From Escherichia phage vB_EcoM-Pr103Blw: 64,000 nucleotides of DNA. Position numbers and translations under genes: made by a program. The notes under the pieces are model-generated. The model had not been told where the DNA came from, did not search any database, and was given only the letters and a program-made list of their open reading frames with translations. The DNA is taken from the sequence record MW481326.1; one strand, 5' to 3'. Of this stretch, positions 11,297 to 12,079 are shown piece by piece. Every line of letters starts with the position of its first letter. The stretch's first letter is position 1.

Positions 11297-11373
11297 TGAC
11301 AGAAGACCAATTGCAGCAAATTTAATCTTATTCATCTGACAGTTAATCGGACAAAGAAGAGATTTGGTCTGGT
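11297..11373 (+). ncRNA. stem-loop RNA module 1 (ACAGAAGACC ... CAGCAAA ... TTGGTCTGG)
   Basis: 5' arm AGACCAA pairs with 3' arm TTGGTCT; shares conserved 5' motif with modules 2-4. Confidence 0.45.
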
Positions 11374-11383
11374 CATTAAGAAT

Positions 11384-11457
11384 TGCGGGTATAGAGAAAG
11401 GGCGTCTCACATGTCTCATTAGCATGGTATCGGCAGGTTCGACTCCTGCACCCGCTT
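11384..11457 (+). tRNA. tRNA-Met (anticodon CAT); T-T mismatch at top of acceptor stem
   Basis: D-stem GAGA/TCTC, anticodon stem CATGT/GCATG loop CTCATTA, T-arm GCAGG-TTCGACT-CCTGC, CCA encoded. Confidence 0.55.
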
Positions 11458-11465
11458 CCAAATTT

Positions 11466-11530
11466 ACAGAAGACCGTTTACAGCAAATTTAATGAAATTT
11501 TTAGCGGAAAAATTGAAAGATACGGTCTGG
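11466..11530 (+). ncRNA. stem-loop RNA module 2 (ACAGAAGACCGTTTACAGCAAA ... ACGGTCTGG)
   Basis: AGACCGT pairs with ACGGTCT; same conserved 5' motif. Confidence 0.45.
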
Positions 11531-11543
11531 TAATACTAAATAT

Positions 11544-11617
11544 GGTTAGGAAGCACATAAGGTATGTGCGGTCGCCTGTTAAGCGAATGGCACAGGGTTC
11601 GAATCCCTGACTAACCG
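11544..11617 (+). tRNA. tRNA-Asn (anticodon GTT)
   Basis: D-stem GCAC/GTGC, anticodon loop CTGTTAA, T-arm CAGGG-TTCGAAT-CCCTG, CCA encoded. Confidence 0.65.
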
Positions 11618-11628
11618 CCAAATTAAAT

Positions 11629-11713
11629 GTGTCGTTATCCCGTAGATGGTAGCGGTGGGGACTGTAAATCCCTTGTCATTGAGACTCGGTAGGTTCGACT
11701 CCTACACGGCACA
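11629..11713 (+). tRNA. tRNA-Tyr (anticodon GTA), long variable arm
   Basis: acceptor GTGTCGT/ACGGCAC (one G-U), anticodon stem GGGGA/TCCCT loop CTGTAAA, 15-nt variable arm, T-arm GTAGG-TTCGACT-CCTAC, CCA encoded. Confidence 0.65.
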
Positions 11714-11721
11714 CCAATAAA

Positions 11722-11795
11722 GGCTATGTAGTTTAACTGGAGAAAATACTCCCCTGTCACGGGAGATGATGTGAGTTCAAGTCTCATCGTAGCCG
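11722..11795 (+). tRNA. tRNA-Asp (anticodon GTC)
   Basis: acceptor GGCTATG/CGTAGCC, anticodon stem CTCCC/GGGAG loop CTGTCAC, CCA encoded. Confidence 0.65.
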
Positions 11796-11860
11796 CCAAT
11801 TTTTGAGATGGCTATTTAGCCCCTCCCTTAAAGAGTTCTTACGAGTATTCTTTAAAGGAG

Positions 11861-11934
11861 CAGAAGACCGAATACAGCAAGAATGTATGAAATTTCAAGC
11901 CAATTTAATTTTGAAAATTTAAAACTTGGTCTGG
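11861..11934 (+). ncRNA. stem-loop RNA module 3 (GCAGAAGACCGAATACAGCAAG ... CTTGGTCTGG)
   Basis: same arm motifs as modules 1, 2 and 4. Confidence 0.4.
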
Positions 11935-11946
11935 CTCAACAAATTT

Positions 11947-12079
11947 ACAGAAGACCGTTTACAGCAAAACTTAAACAATCTATTTCTCCGGTAAAGAAAA
12001 GGCGAAGGTTCGATTCCTTCACTCGGCAGATGTCGAGTTGGTGTAATGGTAGCACTTAAGATGATAAACAACGGTCTGG
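11947..12079 (+). ncRNA. stem-loop RNA module 4 with internal permuted tRNA-like domain (T-arm, acceptor hairpin, D-arm); candidate Y-RNA-like (YrlA-like) RNA
   Basis: 8-bp terminal stem AGACCGTT (11952-11959) / AACGGTCT (12070-12077) encloses T-arm GAAGG-TTCGATT-CCTTC, then 7-bp hairpin ACTCGGC-AGAT-GTCGAGT, then D-arm GTGT-AATGGTA-GCAC. Confidence 0.5.

Follow-up and report, generated by a model that had tools for sequence, protein, structure and literature searches.

Background

Y RNAs lying no more than 4 kb from a Ro60 gene, on the same strand, were reported from 254 bacteria and 22 phages by Chen et al. 2014 (PMC4201824), in a survey that covered only genomes annotated with TROVE proteins. 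The YrlA RNAs among them, which keep to the same distance and strand, have a 5′ GNCGAAN0-1G motif and a transfer RNA (tRNA)-like domain with T, acceptor-like, D and V elements, and are accompanied by shorter companion RNAs. Here we describe four related RNA modules in Escherichia phage vB_EcoM-Pr103Blw (sequence record MW481326.1), analysed over a stretch of 64,000 nucleotides which we call the window. The modules lie among tRNA genes at 11297-12082 on the plus strand, downstream of a gene for a Ro60-like protein. They are probably phage-encoded Y-RNA-like small RNAs and cognate ligands of that protein.

Two phage systems are close to this locus. In Thermus phage phiLo, Ro60 binds two adjacent Yrl RNAs (Yrl1 and Yrl2) as well as the host polynucleotide phosphorylase (PNPase) in vitro (PMC12135203). 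In the PhageMaP preprint, gp130 of the Felixounavirus Bas63 is a Ro60-like protein that is encoded directly upstream of tRNA genes and counters the ppl defence; on the RNA side its authors speculate only that "some tRNA genes are possibly Y RNAs".

The Class I RNAs of Dictyostelium are a eukaryotic point of comparison. Kjellin et al. 2021 (PMC7919456) described them as about 60 nt long, encoded by 9-39 genes per genome, variable in their interior and without a homologue outside Dictyostelia. Their terminal stem of 6 bp is conserved in structure only, with a conserved AAG start and CUGU end, and its 5′ strand is adjoined by the 11-nt motif CCUUACAGCAA, in which U3, C6, C9, A10 and A11 are near-invariant. 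The RNA recognition motif (RRM) protein Rnp1A/CIBP binds DdR-21, one of the Class I RNAs, directly. DDB_G0281243, whose function is undescribed, is one of four proteins pulled down with the same RNA. Class I RNAs are abundant and developmentally regulated, and have been mechanistically unexplained since 2004.

Four RNA modules with a common frame

The window comes from a Felixounavirus, and 276 phage records match it at 80-99% identity. It contains 26 tRNA genes (11128-16353; ARAGORN and Rfam). One module is situated in the gap between tRNA-Glu and tRNA-Met, one between tRNA-Met and tRNA-Asn, and two in tandem between tRNA-Asp and tRNA-Lys, 3-10 nt from the neighbouring tRNA ends. Module 1 begins 336 nt after the end of the Ro60-like open reading frame (ORF), and the modules end about 1.1 kb downstream of it, on the same strand.

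An earlier note on this DNA had proposed that four spacers share 5′ and 3′ motifs. On the plus strand we recovered CAGAAGACC-NNN-T-N-CAGCAA in four exact copies, all of them with a closing GGTCTGG, and no others in the 64 kb. As the pattern CAGAAGACCNNNTNCAGCAA, they matched exactly at 11300, 11467, 11861 and 11948 (plus strand); the next best site in the 64 kb had 3 mismatches, and 0 of 100 shuffles attained 5 matches. Each copy is followed 50-120 nt downstream by NNGGTCTGG, the NN of which is complementary to the NN after AGACC. Two details of the proposal needed amendment. The 5′ motif, given as T(A/T)CAGCAA, is shared, but module 1 has G and not A or T before CAGCAA. The AGACC/GGTCT closing stem stands and takes in the complementary NN, but an additional 4-nt outer stem on each side had been overlooked.

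A single frame was obtained for all four modules with RNAfold. The outer stem has 4 bp (UGAC/GUCA, UUAC/GUAA, GAGC/GCUC and UUAC/GUAA in modules 1-4), and between it and the inner stem lies an internal loop in which AGA in the 5′ strand faces a single G in the 3′ strand. The inner stem, AGACCNN/NNGGUCU, has 7-8 bp, starts with AG and ends with CU. Immediately after its 5′ strand comes an unpaired box, (U)UACAGCAA, which begins exactly 10 nt past the first inner pair. The terminal stem with internal loop that had been predicted is thus present in four of the four modules, with covarying stems, and with it the interrupted helix of 5′ and 3′ ends that characterises Y RNAs.

All module coordinates are on the plus strand. 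Module 1 (11297-11375) has its outer stem at 11297-11300/11372-11375, the AGA loop at 11301-11303, the inner stem at 11304-11310/11364-11370, the box TTGCAGCAA at 11311-11319 and the unpaired G at 11371. In module 2 (11464-11533) the outer stem is at 11464-11467/11530-11533, AGA at 11468-11470, the inner stem at 11471-11477/11522-11528, the box TTACAGCAA at 11478-11486 and the G at 11529. Module 3 (11858-11937; fold z = -2.5) has corresponding parts at 11858-11861/11934-11937, 11862-11864 and 11865-11871/11926-11932, with the box ATACAGCAA at 11872-11880 and the G at 11933. Module 4, the YrlA-type member (11945-12082), has its outer stem at 11945-11948/12079-12082, AGA at 11949-11951, the inner stem at 11952-11959/12070-12077, the box TACAGCAA at 11960-11967 and the G at 12078. 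Modules 1-3 hold one A/U-rich hairpin, with 58-68 nt between the inner-stem ends, and module 4 has 126 nt between them. A terminator or attenuator reading of the modules was rejected, as the stems are not followed by T-runs.

Conservation and covariation

A scan of IMG/VR with the 5′ motif alone returned 74 loci, the multi-copy ones being Felix-type genomes. The 41 single-copy loci were chance or coding matches without a paired 3′ partner and served as a control. Among 124 Felix-type modules (77 unique), the base before CAGAAG covaried with the base after GGTCTGG (A-U, G-C). A compensatory A-U to G-C change was present in the outer stem of module 2 orthologues, and across orthologues of module 3 the outer stem took the forms GAGC/GCUC, GGAGC/GUUCC and GGGGC/GUCCU. 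Orthologues in other phages kept the frame while their interiors diverged freely. Three to five modules were retained in three loci (L004-L006) with Ro-like proteins 63%, 55% and 52% identical. There the inner stems were wholly different in sequence (AGUAUC/GAUACU, AGACUCU/AGAGUCU, AGUGUC/GACACU, AGGCUGU/GCAGCCU and others), and the frame and box were unchanged.

A cross-lineage set, with one locus per lineage, was gathered by eye and with scripts. In its 37 modules from nine lineages, the distance from the first inner-stem nucleotide to the C of CAGCAA was exactly 10 nt, irrespective of how long the stem was. The unpaired 3′ G was invariant, as were the C, G, C and A of CAGCAA; the final A was nearly so, and U or A was common before the box. 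Among 36 stems from the nine lineages, partly chosen for pairing, 99% of the stem cells were paired and double changes occurred in six of the six pairs. The covariation score of these 36 modules was 0.96, against 0.22 in shuffles (0 of 500 reached 0.96) and at most 0.13 in slid registers. The G-U pairs and the strict strand bias speak for structure at the RNA level. Covariation across related phages had been named beforehand as a check to make, and in orthologues we found compensatory changes.

The neighbouring Ro60-like protein

The gene upstream of the modules (9546-10961, plus strand) encodes a protein of 471 amino acids with the Pfam domains DUF2828 and DUF7788, the presumed protein partner of the modules. 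It belongs to PHROG 850, annotated as "RNA-binding protein". Membership in Ro60/Pfam TROVE was not detected at the sequence level and no solved structure was matched significantly; sequence searches against PDB and NCBIfam returned nothing useful beyond a marginal match to the Ro60 von Willebrand factor A (vWA) domain (E 0.92). An AlphaFold model of the protein (pLDDT 87.5) was then compared with PDB using Foldseek, and all of the top 8 matches were Ro60/TROVE proteins (E 1.5e-8 to 7.5e-7; TM-score 0.56-0.65, the model being aligned over its whole length). The top matches include 9kop, 9l5y, 2i91, 1yvp, 2nvo, 9nfa and 9nep, and among the Ro60 proteins matched are those of Thermus phage phiLo (the best structural match) and Xenopus, and Rsr of Deinococcus. 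Helices are predicted for residues 28-263, and the alpha/beta domain that comes next carries an invariant DxSxS motif. The model thus shows the HEAT-repeat ring and the C-terminal vWA domain with a MIDAS motif (metal ion-dependent adhesion site) by which Ro60/TROVE proteins are recognised. Judged from its predicted structure, the neighbouring protein has a Ro60 fold, in agreement with the earlier note, which had called the adjoining gene Ro60-like, and despite the lack of a match at the sequence level.

Proteins of this DUF2828 type were detected by tblastn in 709 of about 50,700 phage records, which places them among the more widespread RNA-binding proteins of phages. The identification of Bas63 gp130 as an orthologue of the window ORF rests on shared genus, genomic position and fold, and not on a sequence comparison.

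Module 4 contains a permuted tRNA-like domain

The minimum free energy (MFE) fold of module 4 contains, in order along the plus strand, a V arm (11979-12002), a T arm (GAAGG-TTCGATT-CCTTC, 12004-12020), a closed acceptor-like hairpin of 7 bp (12021-12038) and a D arm (GUGU-AAUGGUA-GCAC, 12040-12056). The T loop is GGTTCGATTCC and the D loop AATGGTA. Module 4 therefore has the layout of a circularly permuted tRNA in which the terminal helix replaces the anticodon stem. An RNAalifold consensus from 8 phages kept the closing stem, T arm, acceptor hairpin and D arm, with compensatory change in 13 of 22 pairs. The acceptor hairpin has three unrelated sequences among close relatives, all of them paired. 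A partial Rfam tRNA match covers 11971-12021 of module 4; modules 1-3 have no tRNA-like domain. In the GenBank record of Escherichia phage REP5, a 131-nt "tRNA-Thr (GGT)" overlaps modules 3 and 4 (locus L003, 3117-3247), a mis-annotation attributable to the tRNA-like domain.

Comparison with Y RNA covariance models, which had also been suggested, gave a negative answer for the window itself. Rfam Y_RNA (RF00019) had no match at E<=10, only tRNAs being reported at gathering thresholds, and Rfam YrlA (RF02553) had none even at E<=10, nor did module 4 in a 171-nt search. Klebsiella phage FBKp34 and mycobacteriophage Kingsolomon have counterparts of module 4 that gave full-length YrlA matches of 39.6 and 37.9 bits (E 2e-5 and 7e-5), both below the Rfam gathering score of 69 bits. 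With its arms in the permuted order and with counterparts that match YrlA at E about 1e-5, module 4 is a YrlA-type member and upholds the Y-RNA-like nature suspected for the modules.

Modules beside Ro-like genes of distant phages

About 14 phage lineages have modules with stem and box on the strand of a DUF2828 Ro-like gene and no more than about 4.5 kb from it. These include Ounavirinae, Stephanstirmvirinae, Lahexavirus, Eucampyvirinae and Herelleviridae, and further phages of Mycobacterium, Bacillus, Staphylococcus and Enterococcus as well as Straboviridae. Klebsiella phage FBKp34, Aeromonas phage LAh_6, Campylobacter phage F352, Staphylococcus phage S-CoN_Ph6, Enterococcus phage H1, Cronobacter phage S13 and Vibrio phage V07 all carry modules. 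Three consecutive modules stand beside the Ro-like gene in Listeria phage A511 and in Kingsolomon, and in Bacillus phage Skywalker the modules are again scattered among tRNAs.

A synthetic covariance model (R1), built of stem, box and 3′ strand, ranked the four window modules first and was clean on 410 kb of other sequence. Its E-values are rough and, with or without filters, it was not sensitive enough to pick up modules whose interiors are long, so it was replaced by a rule scan. A loose rule (background of about 11 matches per 100 kb-strand) was dropped for a strict one, learned on nine lineages and consisting of ACAGCAA, the 10-nt offset, at least 7 bp and the 3′ G. In five new DUF2828 loci the strict rule gave 9 matches on the gene strand (0.32 expected, P about 8e-11) and 0 on the opposite strand. 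It gave 0 matches in T4- and T5-type tRNA clusters, 5 in 723 kb-strands of unrelated viral contigs, and 3 in the window, these being modules 2-4. The presence of modules beside DUF2828 Ro-like genes in distant phages, and their absence from tRNA clusters without a Ro-like gene, support the reading of the modules as Ro ligands.

Several unusual RNA elements were seen in the same phage loci. Otherwise complete tRNAs carry an inserted hairpin with a UACAGCA/UAUUCAGCA box in FBKp34 (L007, 7003-7116), Cronobacter phage S13 (L090, 5896-6016 and 6026-6138) and LAh_6 (L008, 2494-2610). In the first two phages the insert is found between the D arm and the anticodon arm, and in LAh_6 a box-bearing insert of 52 nt takes the place of the anticodon loop. 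In annotations these genes figure as long or "OTHER" tRNAs; they resemble the tRNA-like module in a non-permuted form. In two Ounavirinae-like loci (L005, 6606-6703; L006, 6607-6681) a tRNA-like gene with a long internal insertion lies just downstream of the Ro-like gene (Rfam tRNA 39 bits; "tRNA-???" in ARAGORN). Enterococcus phage H1 has a mini tRNA-like element (L089, about 3783-3855) with the acceptor GCGAAAU/AUUUCGC, D and T arms and apparently no anticodon arm, directly upstream of the box module and the Ro-like gene. In A511 the Ro-like gene and its three modules have a match to ROOL RNA (L084, 3465-4016; 87.5 bits, E 2e-16, gathering score 99.1) about 1 kb upstream, and RtcB and RNA ligases are encoded in the neighbourhood.

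Transcription unit and neighbouring RNA elements

Two sigma-70-like promoters are situated between the Ro60-like gene and the first tRNA, TTGACA/TAATAT at 10980-11008 and TTGACA/TAAAGT at 11072-11101 (plus strand; each 10/12 in a consensus scan, and consensus matches only). No terminator-like site was found on the plus strand inside the cluster of tRNAs and modules. Given the two promoters and the absence of such a site, the modules would most simply be parts of the tRNA precursor.

Further elements occur in this part of the window, all on the plus strand. A structured RNA of about 145 nt follows module 4 directly (12081-12224; long terminal helix with a perfect core of 17 bp, MFE -49 kcal/mol, z = -6.3). 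It is kept in the phages Mordin, Sf17 and REP5 and in locus L004, with compensatory changes in the long stem, and contains ACAGNCC-UUAAGCAA-GNCUGG, which recalls the motif of the modules; Rfam had no match to this RNA. A hairpin, CCTTAAAGA...TCTTTAAAGG, is located between tRNA-Asp and module 3 (11799-11857). Between tRNA-Lys and tRNA-Met there is an imperfect hairpin of 78 nt (12305-12382) which is also found in Sf17; in REP5 and Mordin, which lack it, 4-6 nt separate the two tRNAs. Its presence and absence mark it as an indel-type element.

Beyond these lies a strong sigma-70-like promoter, TTGACA-17-TATAGT (12552-12580). Weak Rfam matches were obtained to permuted transfer-messenger RNA (tmRNA_permuted, 12478-12662, 28.9 bits) and to tmRNA (12594-12782, 17.4 bits). 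The frame "gca aac gac aat gtt ttt ctg gca gta gct tga" at about 12630-12662 reads ANDNVFLAVA-stop and is similar to a tmRNA tag. ARAGORN made no tmRNA call in the region 12552-12782, which may be a phage tmRNA-like RNA.

Interpretation and alternatives

We regard it as probable that the four modules are Y-RNA-like ligands of the Ro60-like protein, as the earlier note had suggested in calling them candidate Ro60 ligands. This is what the Ro60-fold neighbour, the covarying helix, the YrlA-type member and the linkage to DUF2828 genes across distant phages point to. The modules would be transcribed together with the tRNAs from the promoters at 10980-11101. RNase P and the tRNA 3′-end machinery would cut the flanking tRNAs and so release the modules, trimming being halted at the terminal helix. 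The outer stem, the AGA/G loop, the AG...CU inner stem and the unpaired box at its fixed 10 nt could together form a common docking platform, of which the Ro-like ring would recognise the helix and the box, on the model of Ro60 and the bulged Y RNA helix. The variable interiors may then be effector domains that confer different partners. The tRNA look-alike in module 4 might recruit or distract tRNA-binding enzymes, or tether a host exoribonuclease (PNPase, as with bacterial YrlA/Yrn1 and the Rsr-Y RNA-PNPase machines). The resulting ribonucleoproteins (RNPs) could act in RNA surveillance and quality control or in counter-defence during infection.

Several observations weigh against this reading. 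The modules lack the canonical Ro-binding sequences (GGUCCGA; GNCGAAN0-1G), RC-AGA-AG being the nearest approach, and the failure of both Rfam models to match them in the window even at E<=10 points the same way. The partial choice of cross-lineage stems for pairing inflates the percentage paired, although the tests on orthologues and on unseen loci are less affected. The look-alike Class I RNA binds an RRM protein directly (PMC7919456), which makes a partner other than Ro conceivable. Finally, expression of Bas63 gp130 by itself, with either a plasmid or T7 as the source, is enough to restore plaquing on the ppl defence strain, so that at least its activity against this defence is independent of the phage's own modules.

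In one alternative, the modules are genuine small RNAs with a box read by a non-Ro RNA-binding protein of host or phage, or by a base-pairing target, and are linked to Ro through a shared neighbourhood of RNA repair and tRNA genes. Direct binding of DdR-21 by Rnp1A (PMC7919456) and the action of gp130 in T7 without modules both suit it. So do the unpaired state of the box, as expected of a seed or a single-strand binding site, and the occurrence of RtcB, RNA ligases and tRNA genes in the module loci. We nevertheless consider it unlikely: the DUF2828 Ro-like gene is the only consistent neighbour in all lineages examined, no RRM protein was seen in the module loci, and the YrlA-type member links the family to Ro biology.

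The modules could instead be cis-acting processing or stability elements of the tRNA precursor (RNase E, RNase III or 3′ exonuclease sites, or folding insulators) that form no independent RNPs. Their position 3-10 nt from tRNA ends inside one transcription unit is compatible with such a role; the outer stems could be nuclease barriers, and the cluster holds other conserved hairpins (12081-12224; 11799-11857). However, the modules of Kingsolomon, S-CoN_Ph6 and LAh_6 adjoin the Ro-like gene with few or no flanking tRNAs, and the tRNA clusters of T4 and T5 type have none. A spacer, moreover, needs neither an invariant box at a fixed 10 nt nor a tRNA mimic, and we judge this explanation improbable. 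Decayed tRNA genes, or a DNA-level repeat such as a miniature inverted-repeat transposable element (MITE) or a recombination element, could account for the tRNA-like pieces of module 4 (the 131-nt "tRNA-Thr" of one record), for the tandem copies and for the neighbouring hairpins that are indels between phages, but an origin of this kind without RNA function is highly implausible, as pairing is maintained through G-U pairs and double changes while interiors diverge, the modules are always oriented along transcription, the acceptor hairpin has been replaced three times in close relatives with its structure kept, and the motif persists across phages of Proteobacteria, Firmicutes and Actinobacteria with proteins only 29-37% identical.

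None of these alternatives accounts for both the cross-phylum linkage to Ro-like genes and the YrlA-type member. If the modules are Ro ligands, the DUF2828-type Ro-like family, for which an RNA partner was previously undefined, gains a concrete motif in the ACAGCAA box, helix and unpaired G. Each Felix-type genome would hold four candidate RNAs, including a tRNA mimic, and several mis-annotated "long tRNAs" in phage records would be explained.

Comparison with known systems

Neither the modules nor the ACAGCAA box turned up in the literature searched; the motif string met only unrelated small interfering RNA (siRNA) sequences. T4 species 1 and 2 (rnaC, rnaD) are likewise small stable RNAs of undescribed function, cotranscribed with tRNAs and excised by the tRNA processing machinery. 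However, the T4-type cluster examined (RB10) has neither a Ro-like gene nor, by covariance model and strict rule, a module of stem and ACAGCAA. We rejected species 1 and 2 as homologues, as the motif is not present in the RB10 locus.

The Class I RNAs are similar to the modules at the RNA level. Both have a short terminal stem (about 6 bp, conserved in structure only in Class I), followed straight after the 5′ strand by a (CC)UUACAGCAA motif. Both have an A-rich run ahead of the 3′ strand, a length of about 50-70 nt and many paralogues, and their starts (AAG or A-AG) and ends (CUG(U)) may correspond. The defining combination of short stem and adjoining 11-nt motif is found in the phage modules. 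Of 35 unique curated RNAs from D. discoideum and D. firmibasis, 33 have their first nucleotide 10 nt ahead of the C of CAGCAA, and this spacing is shared by 37 of 37 phage modules. The Rfam Class I model (RF01414) scored module 2 at 21.2 bits and module 4 at 12.8 bits, weak values below the gathering score of 41.5. Eight LAh_6 modules, all of them encoded in the same direction as the Ro-like gene, matched the model along its whole length at 19-30 bits, also below 41.5. The printed E-values of 0.011-6 are already multiplied by 4227 families. There are differences. The 3′ end is shifted by one nucleotide (A-AG...CU-G-(G/U) in the phage modules, AAG...CUGU in Class I, hence CU-G vs C-UG). Class I RNAs have no outer stem, their known direct binder is an RRM protein, and they come from individually transcribed eukaryotic genes with a DUSE promoter about 60 nt upstream, whereas the modules belong to an operon with sigma-70-like promoters.

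RNAs with stem and (U)UACAGCAA box may be the signature ligands of the DUF2828/DUF7788 branch of Ro60-like proteins, with Class I RNAs in the same family, a suggestion that we make tentatively and at somewhat short of even confidence. DUF2828 is also a eukaryotic family, with plant and tardigrade mentions. On the same suggestion, Class I RNAs could be Y-RNA equivalents with a DUF2828-type Ro-like protein as their core partner, for which DDB_G0281243 is a candidate, and the module would have been exchanged or shared between phages of bacteria and bacterivorous amoebae. Should the match go back to a shared ancestor or a shared partner, RNAs that have been orphans for 20 years would acquire a mechanism and their claimed restriction to dictyostelids would fall.

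With the Y RNAs of metazoans and Deinococcus (RF00019; 1YVP) the modules share an end-paired helix with a small asymmetric loop, variable effector loops, several paralogues per genome and a partner of Ro60 fold. They differ in having no similarity to the GGUCCGA/UUGACU helix and no separate gene of RNA polymerase III type, tRNA-precursor processing being the presumed route. The phiLo system (PMC12135203; 9KOP, 9L5Y) is alike in pairing a phage homologue of Ro60 with at least two Y-like RNAs from adjacent loci. There, however, the criterion for choosing the RNAs was a CGAA motif within a large bulge, their position is upstream of the gene, and neither an ACAGCAA box nor a tRNA-operon setting was described.

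The closest likeness in architecture is between module 4 and YrlA: in both, a terminal stem surrounds the V arm, T arm, closed acceptor-like hairpin and D arm, in the same permuted order. The Ro60-type gene is adjacent on the same strand, within the distance of about 4 kb used for YrlA, a purine-rich motif is present on the 5′ strand, and shorter partner RNAs (YrlB-like hairpins) stand alongside. Unlike YrlA, the modules are accompanied by a protein of the DUF2828/DUF7788 branch and not by an annotated TROVE protein. Their RC-AGA-AG replaces GNCGAAN0-1G, with a common C...A.G spacing but not a common sequence. They also have an invariant ACAGCAA box after the stem, which is not part of the YrlA description, and they number four, inside a tRNA operon. 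We have filed the modules as a variant of the Y-RNA kind, and not as members of RF02553 or RF00019. As such they would extend the partnership of Ro60 and Y RNA to a divergent branch of the protein with a different recognition code.

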